This document shows, piece by piece, positions 2,166 to 38,555 of a DNA stretch of 64,000 bases (position 1 is its first letter; each line of letters begins with the position of its first letter). The notes under the pieces are model-generated. The model ran no database searches. It was not told the DNA's origin and was given only the letters and a program-made list of their open reading frames with translations. Source of the DNA: Escherichia phage vB_EcoM_ACG-C40. Location of the stretch: the sequence record NC_019399.1. One strand, written 5' to 3'. The position numbers and the translations under genes are program-made.

Positions 2166-2759
2166 TTATTTCAGAGAATTAATGTATTCCTGAACATCGG
2201 CAGAGGTAGTTTCAACCCCAGAAATATTACCGTTAAAGGTTTCAACTCGAGCAAGGGTATCTTCAATATCAACCTTAGTCAGTGCTGCAATTTCAACTAC
2301 ATCATCAGCAGTACTAATTCCAAGGGCATTTGCTGCACGAGTTTCACGGATATATTCCAATTTAACCGCAAGTTCTTGACGAGCATCATCTAACTCAACT
2401 ACTTTCTTGGCGATTTCAATTCGCATTTCAGCATAACCGTCAGCCTTAGTAGTCAACTGCTCAGCTGTTCGACGATATAGCAAACCGAGTTTAGCATGCA
2501 TTGTTACATCTTGGCCTTCGGAAAGAAGTTTACGAATTTCACGCTCTTTTGATTCGGCCTGTCGATTCTTTTCGATAACAAGTTCACGAATACGTTTTTC
2601 TTCGTTAATAGATTTAACAGAAGCAGTTTTTAGATCTTTAATTTTATCAAGTAGTTTTGCTGCTGCGGCAGTATACTGTTCTTCGACAGATAGATTTTTA
2701 GCCATAGCAGAACCAAGTTTAGTGCGAATAAACTCAACAATTTTCTTCAGTGTGTTCAT
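2166..2759 (-). CDS. hypothetical coiled-coil protein (197 aa); weak PspA/IM30-like character
   Basis: Intact ORF rich in heptad-like E/K/R/L/A segments; family assignment is a guess. Confidence 0.5.
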
Positions 2760-2825
2760 AGTATTTCCTTAGGTTGATTAAGATTTAAAATCCGTAAAAG
2801 TAGTATTATACTCTATCATCAAGTT

Positions 2826-2863
2826 ACAGGCTCATAATATCTCAATCATGAGCCTGTGTAAAC
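2826..2863 (-). promoter_or_regulatory. early-promoter stem-loop (PeSL-like): GTTTAC -35 box followed by inverted repeat enclosing a -10-like TATTAT
   Basis: Minus strand reads GTTTAC-ACAGGCTCAT-GATTGAGATATT-ATGAGCCTGT; upstream of 2166..2759. Confidence 0.5.
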
Positions 2864-3190
2864 TTATTTCATATTATTGAAATATTCTTCAGCAATTTCA
2901 TCATTATCATGATAAACTTTAGAAGACAGTTTAACATAACTTTCAGCAGTGAACATGTTAATCACAACCTTTACAGTATACCACTGACCGTCTTCATTAC
3001 CCATTACTGCATAAGTTTCAAACATCGGATGGTCAGGACCGATAACTTTAATATCATTCACTGTACGACCGAAATCTTCTGAAACACATTTCATAAAGAA
3101 GTTGAACAGCTCACCGTAATTATCCATTTCATTCTCCAAGTTGTTTTCTGTATCAGTAGTTGATAGTTGTATAGTACCATGGAAGGACAA
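2864..3190 (-). CDS. hypothetical acidic protein (108 aa)
   Basis: Intact ORF with ATG start at 3190. Confidence 0.5.
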   Translation of the reverse strand: MSFHGTIQLSTTDTENNLENEMDNYGELFNFFMKCVSEDFGRTVNDIKVIGPDHPMFETYAVMGNEDGQWYTVKVVINMFTAESYVKLSSKVYHDNDEIAEEYFNNMK

Positions 3191-3333
3191 GGATGTAAAC
3201 CGTTTTGTGAAAAAATTTTTAAAAAGTTTTGGGGAATTCTAGGGCAGGGAGGGGAAATCAAAGGATAGGATAATATATTATAAAGGGTAGAAACTAAATG
3301 ATGTCTAGAGAGGCCTGGAAAGGCCTAGATACC

Positions 3334-3360
3334 AAAAAGCCCCAACCTTTCGGTTGGGGC
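3334..3360 (-). terminator. rho-independent terminator (minus strand)
   Basis: Minus strand GCCCCAACC-GAAA-GGTTGGGGC followed by TTTTT. Confidence 0.65.
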
Positions 3361-3364
3361 TAAG

Positions 3365-3673
3365 CCTTGCGGCAACCTTGTCGGGGTTCCACCTGCTAAG
3401 GCAAGTGTTTGTACGAAACGCCGGGATTCGAACCCGGTTATTAAGCAGTTGACGCTACTCAATATTTTTTAAAAGGCCATATCTCGACCATATCCGAACG
3501 TTCCGTCAAAAACGCTACTCGGCTTACGGCAAAGATATTTCCTCGAATCGATAATTCGGTGCGCCGTTTCTGCTGTGATGTAAGGGGACATTAACAAAAC
3601 ATAAAGATTTATTAATGCCAGTCCTTAAACAGGGAACATCAGTCCGACGACTTACCGGTAGCGACCCGGTTTC
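3365..3673 (-). ncRNA. candidate small stable RNA region downstream of tRNA-Arg
   Basis: About 300 nt with no ORF, a tRNA-like T-arm (CCGGG-TTCGAAT-CCCGG on minus strand), duplicated GAGTAGCGT motif, ends at terminator 3334..3360. Confidence 0.25.
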
Positions 3674-4024
3674 TTAATATTCTTTTAAAGCATCAATCTG
3701 TTCACGGCGTTTACGCCATAAATCAATTGCTTCATACGCAGATTCAGCATTTCGAATTAGCCGGCATTTATGTAAAGACTTATGATTTTGATATTGTGTA
3801 GATAATGGAATTGTATCTAAAAGGTCTTTACGATCAAAGTATTCGTAACCATCTAAACCAAATGAACGATTTTTGAGAAATTGCCAATGGCCAAATTCAT
3901 TTTCAACATAAACATAATCTGCATGCTGATAAAGTAAATTAATTACACGTTCAGAAATAGCAGTATCATTATGATTAAAATAGAATGTTAAATCATGAAC
4001 TACTAAATAAACATTACCTTTCAT
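3674..4024 (-). CDS. hypothetical protein (116 aa)
   Basis: Intact ORF immediately 3' of the tRNA cluster. Confidence 0.5.
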   Translation of the reverse strand: MKGNVYLVVHDLTFYFNHNDTAISERVINLLYQHADYVYVENEFGHWQFLKNRSFGLDGYEYFDRKDLLDTIPLSTQYQNHKSLHKCRLIRNAESAYEAIDLWRKRREQIDALKEY

Positions 4025-4042
4025 ATTTTCCTCACTTATAAT

Positions 4043-4118
4043 TGGTCGAGGCAGTAGGGATCGAACCTACGACCCAGGACTTAGAAGGTCCTTGCTCTTC
4101 CTTCTGAGCTATGCCCCG
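4043..4118 (-). tRNA. tRNA-Arg (anticodon UCU)
   Basis: 76-nt cloverleaf folded by hand; anticodon loop CTTCTAA; T-loop TTCGATC; encoded CCA. Confidence 0.8.
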
Positions 4119-4122
4119 TAAT

Positions 4123-4198
4123 TGGGGTGACCGATGGGAGTCGAACCCATGACTACGAGAATCACAATCTCGAGTTCTACCAACTGAACTACGGCCAC
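4123..4198 (-). tRNA. tRNA-His (anticodon GUG)
   Basis: 76 nt; acceptor GTGGCCG/CGGTCAC; anticodon loop TTGTGAT; discriminator C; CCA encoded; no encoded G-1. Confidence 0.7.
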
Positions 4199-4312
4199 AT
4201 TAATACCTACTCCAACAATCATGATGTCTTCACACGAAATTAAGAGAAGAGTGATCAGTTCAACCCCTATAATCGCGTCAAGTAGATATTAATGTGACAG
4301 TTGTCACAAATT

Positions 4313-4387
4313 TGGCGGACGTGATAGGATTCGAACCTATAACCAATCGCTTAACAGGCGATCGCTCTGCCATTGAGCTACACATCC
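4313..4387 (-). tRNA. tRNA-Asn (anticodon GUU)
   Basis: 75 nt; anticodon stem ATCGC/GCGAT, loop CTGTTAA; discriminator G; CCA encoded. Confidence 0.75.
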
Positions 4388-4391
4388 AAAT

Positions 4392-4478
4392 TGGTGGGGA
4401 GTGATGGAGTCGAACCACCCGAGTCGCAATGACAATGAATTTACAGTCCACACCGCTACCTCTACGGGATAACTCCCC
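4392..4478 (-). tRNA. tRNA-Tyr (anticodon GUA), long variable arm
   Basis: 87 nt; anticodon loop CTGTAAA; T-arm GGTGG-TTCGACT-CCATC; discriminator A; CCA encoded. Confidence 0.7.
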
Positions 4479-4490
4479 TAATTCATAATT

Positions 4491-4565
4491 TGGTGGCCCT
4501 GGGTGGAATTGAACCACCATCTGGCGATTATGAGTCGCTTGCTTGAACCTTCCAGCTACAGGGCC
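4491..4565 (-). tRNA. tRNA with CAU anticodon (Met, or Ile if lysidine-modified)
   Basis: 75 nt; anticodon loop CTCATAA; T-arm GGTGG-TTCAATT-CCACC; CCA encoded. Confidence 0.7.
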
Positions 4566-4566
4566 T

Positions 4567-4642
4567 TGGTGCTGATTGACGGAATCGAACCGCCGACCTT
4601 CTCATTACAAGTGAGTTGCTCTACCTACTGAGCTAAATCAGC
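4567..4642 (-). tRNA. tRNA-Thr (anticodon UGU)
   Basis: 76 nt; D-arm GCTC-AGTAGGTA-GAGC; anticodon loop CTTGTAA; CCA encoded. Confidence 0.8.
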
Positions 4643-4647
4643 AAAAC

Positions 4648-4737
4648 TGGCGGAGGCGATAGGATTTGAACCTATGAGTCGCCGGAGCGACTGCCGGTTT
4701 TCAAGACCGGTGCATTAAACCACTCTGCCACACCTCC
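4648..4737 (-). tRNA. tRNA-Ser (anticodon UGA), long variable arm
   Basis: 90 nt; anticodon stem CCGGT/ACCGG, loop CTTGAAA; CCA encoded. Confidence 0.8.
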
Positions 4738-4739
4738 AG

Positions 4740-4813
4740 TCTCCATACAAGGATTTGAACCTTGGACCTCCTGATCCCAAATCAGGCGCTCTACCAAACT
4801 GAGCTACACGGAG
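4740..4813 (-). tRNA. tRNA-Pro (anticodon UGG), CCA not encoded
   Basis: 74 nt; anticodon stem CCTGA/TCAGG, loop TTTGGGA; T-arm CAAGG-TTCAAAT-CCTTG. Confidence 0.75.
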
Positions 4814-4823
4814 TAAATTGAAT

Positions 4824-4897
<74 letters not shown>

Positions 4898-4902
4898 AAA
4901 TT

Positions 4903-4989
4903 TGGTGCGAGAAGTGGGACTCGAACCCACAAGGAAATCATTCCGCAGCATTTTAAGTGCTGTGCCTTTACCAATTTGACCATTCTCGC
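4903..4989 (-). tRNA. tRNA-Leu (anticodon UAA), long variable arm
   Basis: 87 nt; anticodon stem CAGCA/TGCTG, loop CTTAAAA; CCA encoded. Confidence 0.8.
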
Positions 4990-4995
4990 GTTATA

Positions 4996-5628
4996 TTATT
5001 TATTACGTGAAAAAGACTGTTCTATCAATTCTGGACACTTTCGTTCTATCCATTTTCTAGCTTTTTGTGGGCTTATACCTATTATTTTAGCAGCTTTACT
5101 AACCCATCCAAATTTAGAATAATCGATTTTAACTAATTCTTCGTAAATTTCATCAGTTAAAATCTTTTCATTAATATTTACCAGTAAATGATATAATTTG
5201 TTATCATTAGCAATTTTAATGAATCTTTTATAGTTTCCGCCTTTACTTAAACCTAATGAAGTAATTGCAGATGATATAGTAGCCGAATTTAATAATGCGT
5301 TTAAAATTTCTTCATCACTAACATTATAACGCTTTTTATTATTTTTAATATTTTTACCAGCAAAAGTATCAGTTTGCGAATGACAGTTTGGACATAATAA
5401 TCTTAAATTTGATTTAAGATGATTTTTGTTATTTCCATCAATATGGTCTAATTGTAGAACAATATGCTTATTTTGCCATTTTGAAATTTTACAAATTGCA
5501 CACTCATATGGAAAAATATTTTCTTTTATTATTTTGTCTTTTAGCTTTCCTGTACTAAAATTTGGATGTTTTCCTTCAAAAATTTCAGCTAATTTAGTAT
5601 CCATAATATGATTCCCAATTATTAACAA
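4996..5628 (-). CDS. HNH homing endonuclease with C-terminal helix-turn-helix-like DNA-binding region
   Basis: Zinc-finger HNH motif CAICK...LQLDHIDGNNKNH...NLRLLCPNCH; ORF start at 5628 is TTG, first ATG is at 5604. Confidence 0.75.
   Translation of the reverse strand: MLIIGNHIMDTKLAEIFEGKHPNFSTGKLKDKIIKENIFPYECAICKISKWQNKHIVLQLDHIDGNNKNHLKSNLRLLCPNCHSQTDTFAGKNIKNNKKRYNVSDEEILNALLNSATISSAITSLGLSKGGNYKRFIKIANDNKLYHLLVNINEKILTDEIYEELVKIDYSKFGWVSKAAKIIGISPQKARKWIERKCPELIEQSFSRNK
4996..5628 (-). mobile_element. freestanding homing-endonuclease gene abutting the 5' end of the tRNA cluster
   Basis: HNH ORF ends 6 nt from tRNA-Leu. Confidence 0.5.
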
Positions 5629-5714
5629 AGGCTCTCAAGCAAGAACCCTTGATGATAGAGGGTATTAATCAGTGCGGTATGAGTTAATAATAACAAATAA
5701 TTCTTAAAGCATAT

Positions 5715-6002
5715 TTACCATTTATGATGATACATACTTACGATGCATTCAAGACCCAAAGGATTCTTGAAAATATCATATTCAAGAGGACCTTTTTCTG
5801 TTTCAATAAAGAAATCAAAATTTACTGTATTAAATTTACGGTCTTCCTTTACTAATTTAACTTGAGAAGATGAACGGTCAATGTAAACCTTTTCAACTTC
5901 AAAACATGTTAAAATGCCATAATCATCAATCAAGGCTTTAGCTGCATCTTGATCATATTTATATCCATTTTCAATGGATGATACTTTAGCATAAAGAATC
6001 AT
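5715..6002 (-). CDS. hypothetical protein (95 aa)
   Basis: Intact ORF; last gene of a tightly packed three-gene set 5715..6588. Confidence 0.5.
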   Translation of the reverse strand: MILYAKVSSIENGYKYDQDAAKALIDDYGILTCFEVEKVYIDRSSSQVKLVKEDRKFNTVNFDFFIETEKGPLEYDIFKNPLGLECIVSMYHHKW

Positions 6003-6004
6003 TA

Positions 6005-6403
6005 TCAGCCTTCATCAACAATAGTGTGAGTATTAGCATTTACGATTTGCCACCAATCAAAGCGATTAGAATCCATCGGTTTGTTTTCATTTTCTTTGAT
6101 AATGTCACGGAGTTCATCTTCAGAGAATGCTTTAGCAATTAAATCGGTATACCCACCACGGGGATAATAATTATCACCTGCAAACAAAAGGAAATTTACC
6201 TTCCCGGAAGCAACATATGCTTCCTTAGGATACTTGTTTCCTGCGTGGTCAACCACTTCAATATAACGGTAAGGAATATCGGTTCTTTCAACCCATTGCC
6301 ATGCCGCCGCAGGGGAATCGAAAGCATCTACACCTAAACGATTATCTTCATCTTTAGACGGATTATTTTCGTAATCCGCATATACATAATATTCAACGTT
6401 CAT
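6005..6403 (-). CDS. hypothetical protein (132 aa)
   Basis: Intact ORF; start overlaps stop of 6403..6588 (ATGA). Confidence 0.5.
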   Translation of the reverse strand: MNVEYYVYADYENNPSKDEDNRLGVDAFDSPAAAWQWVERTDIPYRYIEVVDHAGNKYPKEAYVASGKVNFLLFAGDNYYPRGGYTDLIAKAFSEDELRDIIKENENKPMDSNRFDWWQIVNANTHTIVDEG

Positions 6404-6588
6404 TATTCACCTTTAGAAATTTTATCCATAACAATAGCAATTAAACCAATTAAAAATGCTACTACAAGTGAAAACACATTTTCTGCTGTAGTCAATAATC
6501 CACATATAAATCCAACAAACATTGAAAAACTAAAAGCGGAAGCAGAAATTGCAATAGCAACATTTCGAATTAATTCACAACGTTTCAT
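6403..6588 (-). CDS. small hydrophobic membrane protein (61 aa)
   Basis: Two hydrophobic segments (VAIAISASAFSFSMFVGFICGLL, FSLVVAFLIGLIAIVM); preceded by a PeSL-like promoter. Confidence 0.5.
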   Translation of the reverse strand: MKRCELIRNVAIAISASAFSFSMFVGFICGLLTTAENVFSLVVAFLIGLIAIVMDKISKGE

Positions 6589-6607
6589 TTTATTCTCCTC
6601 AGTAGTA

Positions 6608-6646
6608 GATAGGGTAATAGTATCACTACCCTATCTAAAAGTAAAC
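6608..6646 (-). promoter_or_regulatory. early-promoter stem-loop (PeSL-like)
   Basis: Minus strand GTTTAC-TTTTA-GATAGGGTA-GTGATACTAT-TACCCTATC; -10-like TACTAT in the loop. Confidence 0.55.
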
Positions 6647-6880
6647 TTATTTTTTACGAAAAATTGATTTATTTTCTGCTGCCCATTTTTCAATAACTGC
6701 AGCAGGACCAGTAACAACAATTTTATCACCGTAATCTTCTGCGGCGAGTTGACCGAAATTATCTAATGCATCACGAAGAACTCCATGAGGCATTTCACCC
6801 ATTTTATCTTTCTTGCCAGTGTAAATAAACTCAACTTTTACATCAGCAGTTTCAGCAATAAATTCTTGGTAAGTTTTCAT
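6647..6880 (-). CDS. internal head protein with capsid-targeting leader (MKTYQEFIAE)
   Basis: ORF 6647..6892; leader matches the T4 internal-protein targeting sequence as I recall it, so start placed at ATG 6880. Confidence 0.65.
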   Translation of the reverse strand: MKTYQEFIAETADVKVEFIYTGKKDKMGEMPHGVLRDALDNFGQLAAEDYGDKIVVTGPAAVIEKWAAENKSIFRKK

Positions 6881-6904
6881 TTTGATTTCCATTTGGTTTT
6901 GTTT

Positions 6905-6944
6905 TGATAGGGTAATAGTATCACAACTAAAACCCTATGTAAAC
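6905..6944 (-). promoter_or_regulatory. early-promoter stem-loop (PeSL-like)
   Basis: Minus strand GTTTAC-ATAGGGT...TACTAT...ACCCTAT; flanking sequence near-identical to the copy at 7246..7284. Confidence 0.55.
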
Positions 6945-6956
6945 AACTTTGTGAAA

Positions 6957-7214
6957 TTATTTTAAATCTTCTAATCGTTTCTTCATCTTAGAACCATTTT
7001 TAGCAATTTCTCCTGCATCGGAGCATAATGCTAAAAGTGCTTTAACTTTAGTTTGGTCTCCTTTAAAAGATGAAGGATCGACCGCAGCAGCAAGTTCTTT
7101 AATACGAGAGAAAAGACGCTCAGCTTCAGCTAAAGCCATTCCAAGCTTTACTTCCATACCGTGGGAAGATTCAGTGATAGTAGTTTTTGTAGCAAACTCT
7201 TTGAAAGTTTTCAT
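6957..7214 (-). CDS. internal head protein candidate with variant capsid-targeting leader (MKTFKEFATK...ITE)
   Basis: 85-aa ORF; leader resembles MKTYQEF; candidate gp21 cleavage site after ITE. Confidence 0.55.
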   Translation of the reverse strand: MKTFKEFATKTTITESSHGMEVKLGMALAEAERLFSRIKELAAAVDPSSFKGDQTKVKALLALCSDAGEIAKNGSKMKKRLEDLK

Positions 7215-7245
7215 TTTTATTTTCCTAATTAATTTGATGAGGTAA

Positions 7246-7284
7246 TAGTATCACTACCTCATCAGTATGTAAACAACTTTGTGA
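7246..7284 (-). promoter_or_regulatory. early-promoter stem-loop (PeSL-like)
   Basis: Minus strand GTTTAC-ATACT-GATGAGGTA-GTGATACTAT-TACCTCATCA. Confidence 0.55.
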
Positions 7285-7286
7285 AA

Positions 7287-7983
<697 letters not shown>

Positions 7984-7984
<1 letters not shown>

Positions 7985-8709
7985 TATAGTACCTTTAGTG
8001 TATTTTTAATTTTAGAAAAAAGTTCTTCAAGAGAACCATCGTTTGTAATTACTAAATCGCCATCACGAATTGGCAATCCAGCTTCTGTAATATGTGTATC
8101 ATTGGATTTTTGACCAGGACGAACTACATGAATTACTGTAGCACCCATCGCCCTAGCCGCATCCATTTCATGATCTTGACGAGTATCAGGAACGATATAA
8201 TAATCATAACCTGAGTTAAATTTATCAAGATAATCTAAAGCAAATAATTTTACCCAGTACATGCGGTCGAAGTTATTAACAATCAAATCCGTACCTAGGG
8301 CTTGCATCAGACGACGGACTGACCATTGATCTTCAATATTATTTATAACGTCAATAATCTTGTTAAATGCTACGGAATTAACTGATTCTTGTCCTTCGTC
8401 ATCAAAAACAAACACACCCTTAATTGGGCTTTTACCATTAAGATAGCAAAATGCTTGTTCCATAATCGTGATTACTTCTAATTTAGTCAGATTTAAATTA
8501 GTTTCACGATCATAGTCAATTCCTTCAAACTCTTTACGAGTTAAGCAAGGATAGTCAGTGTTTGCTGCAAATACGCCCCATGCATAAGCCAATGCATCCT
8601 TAATAGGACCTGCAAGTTGGTATTTAACTGCAGAATAATTGCTCATGATAAAATCAGCAGTAGTATCTTTTCCACTACGCTTTACACCGCTTAAAAAGAT
8701 TAGTTTCAT
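7984..8709 (-). CDS. 1: gp1 deoxynucleoside monophosphate kinase
   Basis: P-loop GVKRSGKDT; start placed at ATG 8709 (MKLIFLSG...) after GAGGAG RBS; the listed ORF begins 13 codons upstream. Confidence 0.85.
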
Positions 8710-36652: not shown

Positions 36653-37077
36653 TGCTTCTGATCCCTGAAACTCATGAATTAGTTCTCGAGAATGTCGAAG
36701 CACTTATTCCTGAAGCACAGGGTCGCTTTGACGAATTGTCTTCTGCTTTAAATAAAGACGATATAAATACAATTGTCGAGAATATGCTTGATGATGAAAC
36801 TGATTTAGCGGTTGCATTAGCTTCTATTAATGAAAATATGCCGTTAAATGAATTTATCGTTAAACATGTTTCTGCCCGTGGTGAAATTACTCGCACTAAA
36901 GATCGCAAAACCCGCGAACGTAATGCATTTCAAACTACCGGGTTGTCTAAAGCAAAACGTAGACAAATTGCTCGTAAAGCTACCAAAACGAAGATTGCCA
37001 ATCCAGCAGGTCAATCTCGTGCTCAGCGTAAGCGTAAAAAAGCTCTTAAACGCCGTAAGGCATTAGGATTAAGCTAA
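36652..37077 (+). CDS. 68: gp68 prohead core protein
   Basis: 141 aa; basic C-terminus. Confidence 0.9.
36762..36769 (+). promoter_or_regulatory. late promoter candidate (TATAAATA) inside gene 68
   Basis: Exact TATAAATA; function unproven. Confidence 0.35.
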
Positions 37078-37715
37078 TGAATGAACCCCAATTACTAATT
37101 GAAACTTGGGGTCAACCTGGCGAAATTATTGATGGCGTACCAATGCTTGAATCTCATGATGGAAAAGACTTAGGTTTAAAACCGGGTTTATACATCGAAG
37201 GAATATTCATGCAAGCGGAAGTCGTCAATAGAAATAAACGTCTTTATCCAAAACGTATATTAGAAAAAGCGGTAAAAGACTATATTAATGAGCAAGTTTT
37301 AACTAAACAAGCTCTCGGAGAATTAAATCATCCTCCACGCGCTAATGTTGACCCGATGCAAGCCGCTATCATTATAGAAGATATGTGGTGGAAAGGAAAT
37401 GACGTATACGGACGAGCTCGTGTTATTGAAGGTGACCACGGTCCTGGAGATAAATTAGCAGCTAATATTCGTGCCGGATGGATTCCAGGAGTTTCTTCTC
37501 GTGGATTAGGTTCATTGACTGACACAAATAAAGGTTATCGTATCGTAAACGAAGGATTCAAATTAACTGTAGGTGTTGATGCAGTATGGGGTCCAAGTGC
37601 TCCAGATGCATGGGTAACTCCTAAGGAAATTACCGAATCACAGACGGCGGAAGCCGATACAAGTGCCGATGACGCCTATATGGCTCTCGCAGAGGCCATG
37701 AAAAAAGCGTTATAA
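37077..37715 (+). CDS. 21: gp21 prohead core protease
   Basis: 212 aa. Confidence 0.95.
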   Translation: MNEPQLLIETWGQPGEIIDGVPMLESHDGKDLGLKPGLYIEGIFMQAEVVNRNKRLYPKRILEKAVKDYINEQVLTKQALGELNHPPRANVDPMQAAIIIEDMWWKGNDVYGRARVIEGDHGPGDKLAANIRAGWIPGVSSRGLGSLTDTNKGYRIVNEGFKLTVGVDAVWGPSAPDAWVTPKEITESQTAEADTSADDAYMALAEAMKKAL

Positions 37716-37745: not shown

Positions 37746-38555
37746 ATGCTTAAAGAACAACTGATTGCTGAAGCGCAAAAAATTGATGCTTCCGTTGCTC
37801 TTGATAGTATTTTCGAATCAGTTAATATTTCTCCGGAAGCAAAAGAAACTTTCGGCACTGTATTCGAAGCTACCGTCAAGCAGCACGCCGTTAAATTAGC
37901 TGAATCTCATATCGCTAAAATTGCTGAAAAAGCAGAAGAAGAAGTAGAAAAAAATAAAGAAGAAGCAGAAGAAAAAGCTGAGAAGAAAATCGCTGAGCAA
38001 GCTTCTAAATTCCTTGACCATCTTGCAAAAGAATGGCTCACTGAAAATAAATTAGCAGTAGATAAAGGTATCAAAGCCGAACTGTTTGAATCCATGCTTG
38101 GTGGATTGAAAGAGCTCTTCGTTGAACACAACGTTGTTGTTCCAGAAGAATCAGTTGATGTTGTAGCTGAAATGGAAGAAGAACTGCAAGAACATAAAGA
38201 AGAATCAGCTCGTCTGTTCGAAGAACTCAATAAGCGTGACGCATATATCAATTATGTGCAGCGTGAAGTGGCATTGAGCGAAAGTACTAAAGATCTGACT
38301 GAGTCTCAAAAAGAAAAAGTCTCTGCTCTGGTCGAAGGTATGGATTATTCAGATGCATTCTCAAGTAAATTGAGTGCAATCGTAGAAATGGTGAAGAAAT
38401 CTAATAAAGATGAAAGCACTATTACTGAGAGTATAAATACTCCTGATACTGAAGCAGCCGGACTGAATTTCGTCACTGAAGCTGTAGAAGATAAATCTGC
38501 ACAAGGTGCAGAAGATATTGTAAGTGTATATGCGAAAGTCGCATCTCGTTTCTAA
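37746..38555 (+). CDS. 22: gp22 major prohead scaffolding core protein
   Basis: 269 aa, acidic coiled coil. Confidence 0.95.
   Translation: MLKEQLIAEAQKIDASVALDSIFESVNISPEAKETFGTVFEATVKQHAVKLAESHIAKIAEKAEEEVEKNKEEAEEKAEKKIAEQASKFLDHLAKEWLTENKLAVDKGIKAELFESMLGGLKELFVEHNVVVPEESVDVVAEMEEELQEHKEESARLFEELNKRDAYINYVQREVALSESTKDLTESQKEKVSALVEGMDYSDAFSSKLSAIVEMVKKSNKDESTITESINTPDTEAAGLNFVTEAVEDKSAQGAEDIVSVYAKVASRF
38432..38439 (+). promoter_or_regulatory. late promoter (TATAAATA) for gene 23, inside the 3' end of gene 22
   Basis: Exact TATAAATA about 135 nt upstream of gene 23. Confidence 0.55.

Follow-up and report, generated by a model that had tools for sequence, protein, structure and literature searches.

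The ip5 and ip6 genes of Escherichia phage vB_EcoM_ACG-C40: a T6-type internal-protein pair between PeSL promoter elements

Introduction

Internal proteins of T-even phages are best described in T4, whose head holds about 1000 internal protein molecules among the packaged DNA, with lysines contacting the DNA phosphates (PMC3012670). Their leaders are thought to target proteins to the gp22 core, and the ten leader residues of IPIII are sufficient for head targeting, also of foreign proteins; targeting depends on positions 4 and 7, and processing on positions 8 and 10 (PMC9026906). The protease gp21 cuts after L/I-X-E, a short motif that suffices for cleavage (PMC9026906). T4 Ip1, Ip2, and Ip3 are injected, and each inhibits a single GmrSD Type IV restriction enzyme, with no cross-protection; the family of these enzymes is very diverse (Silas et al. 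2025, PMC12373910). In the same work, ip4-10 gave no reproducible inhibition of the active GmrSD systems of a panel of 15 groups, where the equation of these names with the ip5 and ip6 considered here rests on shared nomenclature. Phage T6, which carries ip5 and ip6, was restricted by GmrSD-ECOR17 and GmrSD-ECOR21 (PMC12373910). Of the three GmrSD enzymes for which Ip inhibitors are known, two or more are thus active against T6.

Another described system is the promoter-early stem-loop, or PeSL (Arbiol et al. 2010, PMC2839356; Comeau et al. 2014, PMC4122927). Published PeSLs are intergenic repeats in which an early promoter and a hairpin are combined and which bracket variable small genes. Similar observations at the T4 IP locus were mentioned by Comeau et al. 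(PMC4122927). The names Ip5 and Ip6 date from the study of phage T6 by Repoila et al. (1994, EMBO J), and later papers trace the polymorphism of the ip slot to that same study.

The window considered here is the whole 64,000-nucleotide stretch of Escherichia phage vB_EcoM_ACG-C40 (NC_019399.1) that was analysed. By megablast similarity, it belongs to Tequatrovirus, the T4-like phages.

The ip5 and ip6 genes and their setting

The original prediction placed two tandem internal-protein genes in the window without stating their strand. Both open reading frames were confirmed at the predicted coordinates, and both lie on the minus strand. The genes, their parts, and the neighbouring or functionally related genes are as follows.

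6957..7214, minus: ip5 gene, 85 aa (ORF; 100% identity to T6 Ip5; phrog_3499 'internal head protein', E 1.2e-49)
7170-7214, minus: ip5 leader, MKTFKEFATKTTITE, aligning to the T4 IPI leader
6960-7169, minus: predicted mature Ip5, 70 aa, SSHGMEVK...EDLK
6647..6880, minus: ip6 gene, 77 aa (ORF; 76/77 identity to T6 Ip6; phrog_8111 'internal virion protein', E 1.2e-52)
6851-6880, minus: ip6 leader, MKTYQEFIAE, identical to the T4 IPII/IPIII leader
6650-6850, minus: predicted mature Ip6, 67 aa, TADVKVEF...FRKK
7287..7742, minus: gene 57B (Acb1, anti-CBASS phosphodiesterase), upstream flank (Pfam PF23474 Acb1, E 2.6e-60; near-identical to T4 57B)
6403..6588, minus: trna.4 homologue, 61-aa hydrophobic protein, downstream flank (phrog_1692, E 6e-35; near-identical to T4 trna.4)
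37077..37715, plus: gene 21, prohead core serine protease (Pfam Peptidase_S77, E 1.5e-111)
37746..38555, plus: gene 22, scaffolding core protein (Pfam T4_CASP, E 5.2e-90)

The 85-aa protein is a member of the UniRef100 cluster Ip5 (Q38630_BPT6) and equals T6 Ip5 at 85 of 85 residues. The 77-aa protein equals T6 Ip6 at 76 of 77 (99%), the single and conservative difference being V62 in the window against I in T6. In the T6 record MH550421, the slot beside 57B holds two coding sequences noted as 'Ip5 ... replaces ipI' and 'Ip6' (68326-68583 and 68016-68249; UniProt Q38630), and gene order, slot, and flanks match those of the window. The gene ip6 is annotated as such in phages JK08, fFiEco06, and VR7, other records label these genes ip5/ip6 or ipVI, and Ip5 and Ip6 occur in at least 267 and at least 229 sequenced phage records, respectively. 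Going by this sequence identity, the pair is ip5 plus ip6, the form that the T-even internal-protein locus takes in phage T6. Together with the two PHROG assignments, the match to T6 bears out the call of tandem internal-protein genes. It also makes the locus an ordinary one, since its genes are the Ip5 and Ip6 of T6 that were named in 1994; publications already cover the genes (in a model phage), their leaders, the variability of the locus, and the promoter cassettes.

An in-frame ATG upstream of ip6, at 6892, would give a protein beginning MEIKMKTY.... This codon lies in a shared 5' leader and, as read from the sequence, lacks a Shine-Dalgarno of its own, so that 6880 is the likelier start. 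The upstream ATG (6881-6892, minus) belongs to the shared 5' leader ATGGAAATCAAAATG, which also precedes the trna.4 homologue in another phage (L009 3710; MEIKMKIAEAIRN), and a longer, 81-aa form of Ip6 is annotated in several database entries.

Above the ip pair lie 57B, 57A, and genes 1, 3, 2, and 4; below it lie ten tRNA genes and homologues of trna.2, trna.3, and trna.4. The surrounding 24 kb is a mosaic, with best matches to Yersinia phage PYPS2T-like records at about 98% identity. With megablast, the 901-bp ip5/ip6 region was matched in 733 phage records and at least 80% covered in 159 of them; these 159 share the ip5/ip6 cassette. Rfam gave no RNA family within 5600-8100. Directly upstream of the variable ip slot sits 57B, which is Acb1; a variable slot for injected proteins therefore adjoins a proven counter-defence gene.

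A further feature of the tRNA region is a 210-aa ORF at 4996-5628 (minus), between tRNA-Leu (4903-4989) and the trna.2 homologue, with weak matches to HNH nucleases (IscB HNH region, E 4e-6; YajD). Its position is occupied by tRNA-Gln in T4 and in phage Pinarejo, and ARAGORN found no tRNA-Gln in the scanned tRNA region, 3500-5800. The ORF is probably a homing endonuclease insertion.

Leaders and cleavage motifs

Both proteins start directly with a capsid-targeting sequence of MKT(Y/F)(Q/K)EF type, closed by an L/I-X-E motif that ends at residue 10 in Ip6 (IAE) and at residue 15 in Ip5 (ITE). A six-frame scan for MKT[YF]..F leaders found ip5 and ip6 to be the sole ORFs carrying one in the 64-kb window. 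The T4-type partners of such leaders, the gp21 protease and the gp22 scaffold, are both encoded in the window, as is gp67. All ten residues of the Ip6 leader recur at the start of T4 IPII and IPIII, as had been proposed for MKTYQEFIAE, and the leader keeps positions 4 and 7 (targeting) and 8 and 10 (processing) of IPIII. The packaging, processing, and injection logic of IPII and IPIII would then be common to Ip6. These two T4 proteins, also known as Ip2 and Ip3, inhibit GmrSD-ECOR21 and GmrSD-ECOR17, respectively; their genes sit close to e and denV, in the second IP locus, and their mature parts are unrelated to Ip5 and Ip6.

The leader of Ip5 had been taken for a divergent variant. Its sequence, MKTFKEFATKTTITE, can be aligned to that of T4 IPI, MKTFKEFTSTTTPVSTITE, once a gap of four residues is allowed. 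Since it is the IPI leader minus these four residues, it is of a known type and not new, the IPII/IPIII leader not being the sole type in T4.

By the L/I-X-E rule, mature Ip6 would have 67 residues (7.4 kDa, pI 6.5) and mature Ip5 70 residues (7.5 kDa, pI 9.2, 13 K+R). For T4, the 76 residues reported for IPI* (PMC3012670) agree with cleavage after ITE-19 of the 95-residue IPI precursor.

Two extra L/I-X-E motifs are present in mature Ip5 (window 7080-7127, minus; residues 28-40), namely LAE(30) followed by A and IKE(40) followed by L. A motif scan found none in mature T4 IPI, IPII, IPIII, or Ip6. Because of these motifs, Ip5 may be cut again by gp21 at one or both sites, which would yield short peptides as from the core proteins gp22, gp67, and gp68. 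The short motif is enough for gp21 (PMC9026906), and a 54%-identical Mosigvirus homologue of Ip5 has LVE and ISE at the positions of LAE and IKE. However, both motifs fall within a predicted helix (residues 17-44) and may be inaccessible to the protease, their positions could be conserved for helix packing, and all 70 residues are 86-100% conserved in the aligned close relatives of Ip5. Such further cleavage is considered quite unlikely, and a mature Ip5 of 70 residues is preferred here.

PeSL promoter elements

A repeat of about 70 nt (repeat family D1) is present in three copies, which precede ip5, ip6, and trna.4.

7233..7302, minus: PeSL copy 1, upstream of ip5 (TTTACA-17-TACTAT at 7273-7245; fold z -3.95; identical to the element upstream of T4 ipI)
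6903..6972, minus: PeSL copy 2, upstream of ip6 (TTTACA-17-TACTAT at 6943-6915; fold z -3.52)
6605..6674, minus: PeSL copy 3, lying after ip6 and in front of the trna.4 homologue (hairpin z -4.57; 61% identity with the reference copy)

The promoter scan found an upstream TG with both TTTACA-17-TACTAT sites of copies 1 and 2. In DNA folding, all three copies form a hairpin around the -10 element, of about -8 kcal/mol, and only 0-1 of 200 shuffled sequences fold as well; the hairpin of copy 1 is GATGAGGTA / TACCTCATC. Repeat, promoter scan, and hairpin z-scores of -3.5 to -4.6 agree with the earlier statement that each gene has its own stem-loop promoter. A repeated early promoter with a stable stem-loop that brackets variable genes is what defines the PeSL class, and the elements show no notable difference from the published ones; here, the -10 hexamer lies in the hairpin loop. 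The 'stem-loop promoters' are thus the published PeSL cassettes. Comparison with T4 shows that the boundaries of the ip cassette coincide with PeSL elements, copy 3 closing the cassette at the point where identity to T4 restarts. The late-promoter consensus TATAAATA was not found directly upstream of ip5 or ip6, the nearest copy on the same strand being at 8340-8347.

Cassette exchange at the ip locus

T4 carries ipI between trna.4 and 57B; in the window, this slot is taken by ip5 and ip6, in line with the known hypervariability of this locus to which the original prediction had pointed. The window and T4 are near-identical from 57B through the promoter element and ribosome-binding site up to codon seven (MKTFKEF). 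They then diverge wholly, and identity is back at the promoter element before trna.4. This pattern indicates that one cassette has replaced another, with the left junction falling within the codons of the leader.

The slot was surveyed in 33 anchored loci, comprising 31 IMG/VR T4-like contigs with both anchor genes, the window, and T4. Each locus holds 0-4 leader-bearing ORFs, and the 58 leader-bearing mature parts fall into 14 unrelated sequence clusters. As the same leader fronts all of these, it is conserved independently of its cargo. The two genes also occur separately, ip6 alone in one surveyed locus (L039) and ip5 alone in phage Lutter. Leaders have been swapped as well, Ip6 being found with MKTFKEFIAE (L008) and Ip5 with MKTYQTFMTE (L020).

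In Mosigvirus phages, the 54%-identical relative of Ip5 lies in the other IP locus (e/denV), under the leader MKTYSEFLSE. These contents of the e/denV locus imply that Ip families move between the two IP loci and between genera. In one such phage (L006, Mosigvirus vB_VIPECOMC06; 2438-4570), the Ip5-like gene shares the e/denV locus with at least two further leader-bearing ORFs, one starting MKTYKEFIAE and one MKTYQEFITE; a gene of about 190 aa between these two is annotated 'internal virion protein'.

The retention and swapping of the leader among 58 cargoes of 14 clusters argue for selection on the leader itself. This bears on the idea that the leaders are vestigial and that Ip5 and Ip6 act solely as early cytoplasmic proteins and are never packaged. 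That idea would fit the early-type promoters, the only type found, and the lack of a late-promoter consensus directly upstream. Against it, leader and cleavage motif are kept on 58 cargoes in 14 unrelated clusters, with swaps, and the IPIII leader, to which that of Ip6 is identical, suffices to package foreign proteins (PMC9026906). A purely cytoplasmic role appears highly improbable.

Mature parts and predicted folds

Neither protein matched Pfam or NCBIfam, and neither had a significant sequence match in the PDB. Mature Ip5 and Ip6 gave zero BLASTP alignments with mature T4 IPI, IPII, or IPIII at E values up to 100, so homology to the GmrSD inhibitors was not found for either mature part. 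In a word-indexed search of 5.8 billion proteins, the mature parts had 10 matches for Ip6 and 5 for Ip5, all of them proteins of T4-like phages; no homologues outside these phages were found. An exhaustive HMMER search with the Ip6-family profile against 1.84 billion representatives returned five matches, four of which are the family itself; the fifth, a repetitive 419-aa protein (E 7e-4), was taken as spurious. Mature Ip5 is conserved at 86-100% over its whole length when its close relatives are aligned.

Both proteins are predicted to have generic folds, Ip6 a ferredoxin-like one and Ip5 that of a helical hairpin. The AlphaFold model of Ip5 (pLDDT 70) is a two-helix hairpin, with the first long helix at residues 17-44, and had no significant viral structure match. 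The BFVD search with Ip6 returned phage VR7 Ip6 (E 3.2e-12) and an unnamed 78-aa viral protein, A0A7T5UET5 (E 2.4e-5, 28% identity); all remaining matches were weaker than E 1e-3.

The C-terminal half of Ip6 shares a motif, FxGPxxxI(D/E)xW...N, with small leader-bearing slot proteins (L034/L035 3453-3689, L018 3453-3662, and similar). The identity of Ip6 to these proteins, 33% over 49 aa, hints at a wider family through a weak link. A wider 'Ip6 superfamily' of 59-78-aa FxGPxxxIxxW proteins, obtained by single-linkage clustering, was rejected, the direct link having 28.5 bits and E 0.69 at a realistic database size.

In T4, the pair has a described counterpart in IPI/IPI*, the injected inhibitor of the GmrSD of E. 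coli CT596. It has the same slot and PeSL promoter and, for Ip5, the same type of leader (MKTFKEF...ITE). Its mature form has 76 residues against 70 in Ip5, and is unrelated in sequence to Ip5 and Ip6. IPI* consists of two beta-sheets flanked by helices (PMC3012670), in contrast to the helical hairpin predicted for Ip5 and the ferredoxin-like fold predicted for Ip6. Mature Ip6 is near neutral (pI 6.5), whereas the T4 internal proteins are basic. The mature parts had been suggested to be uncharacterised injected counter-defence proteins. The word 'uncharacterised' stands for function and not for newness, the genes having been named since 1994 and ip4-10 already tested on a panel. The mature regions coincide with those of named internal proteins, not with those of characterised ones.

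Probable packaging, injection, and function

A search of the searchable literature turned up neither proteomic data on virions nor N-terminal sequencing for Ip5 or Ip6, and no paper assigning a function to either. The account best supported, given the findings on T4 Ip1-3 and this state of the literature, is T4-like packaging, processing, and injection with a probable counter-defence role. In this account, each gene would be an independent cassette bounded by PeSLs, with an early sigma-70-type promoter within a hairpin. The N-terminal capsid-targeting sequence would carry Ip5 and Ip6 into the gp22 scaffolding core of the prohead, where gp21 would cleave after I-X-E (IAE|T in Ip6, ITE|S in Ip5) and leave mature proteins of about 7.4 kDa (Ip6) and 7.5 kDa (Ip5) inside the head. 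At infection, these would exit the head alongside the DNA and most probably neutralise some host defence protein by binding to it, in the manner of T4 Ip1-3 with GmrSD. By extension from the T4 work on packaging, cleavage, and ejection, it is very probable that both proteins enter the phage head and reach the host together with the DNA. The counter-defence role is proposed by analogy only.

Taken as a whole, that Ip5 and Ip6 are T6-type internal proteins that are PeSL-bounded, packaged, cut by gp21, and injected, with a probable role in counter-defence, is regarded as likely. It is favoured by the identity with T6, the ipI slot, the leaders and their independence of the cargo, the presence of gp21 and gp22, the neighbouring Acb1, and the inhibition of GmrSD by T4 Ip1-3. 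Points against it are that no proteomics was found, the null result for ip4-10, the restriction of T6, the lack of a late promoter directly upstream, the neutral Ip6, and the extra motifs in Ip5.

The proteins might instead have a physical role inside the head (DNA charge neutralisation, packaging, or ejection) with no specific host target. The roughly 1000 internal proteins amid T4 DNA, with their lysine-phosphate contacts (PMC3012670), would agree with such a role, as would the basic mature Ip5 (pI 9.2, with 13 K+R in 70 residues). Mature Ip6, however, with a pI of 6.5, is not basic. Moreover, the slot holds 0-4 unrelated cargoes in related phages, so that no single cargo is needed for head function, and the rapid turnover of the cassettes suits an arms race better than a structural role. 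A merely physical function is therefore held to be unlikely.

Within the preferred account of injected counter-defence proteins, the nature of the target can be narrowed in two ways. Ip5, Ip6, or both could be specific inhibitors of a GmrSD subtype beyond those tested so far, for example one recognising the glucosylation pattern of T6/T2. Each of the three T4 internal proteins whose function is known blocks a single GmrSD variant, the enzyme family is diverse, and Ip5 occupies the ipI slot. On the other hand, ip4-10 showed no reproducible inhibition against the active systems of the 15-group panel, T6 is restricted by GmrSD-ECOR17 and GmrSD-ECOR21, and the mature parts do not resemble IPI*, IPII, or IPIII in sequence. 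This narrower form of the account is thus a possible one, with the balance of probability against it. The negative GmrSD panel, the lack of a homologue, and the predicted folds unlike that of IPI* also leave room for a broader reading, in which Ip5 or Ip6 would be an injected inhibitor of a non-GmrSD host defence or of a GmrSD subtype that the tested panel did not include. This broader reading, again drawn by analogy, is put forward more tentatively. If true, it would widen the known targets of T-even internal proteins. The targets of Ip5 and Ip6, if identified, would help to explain the host range of T4-like therapy phages.
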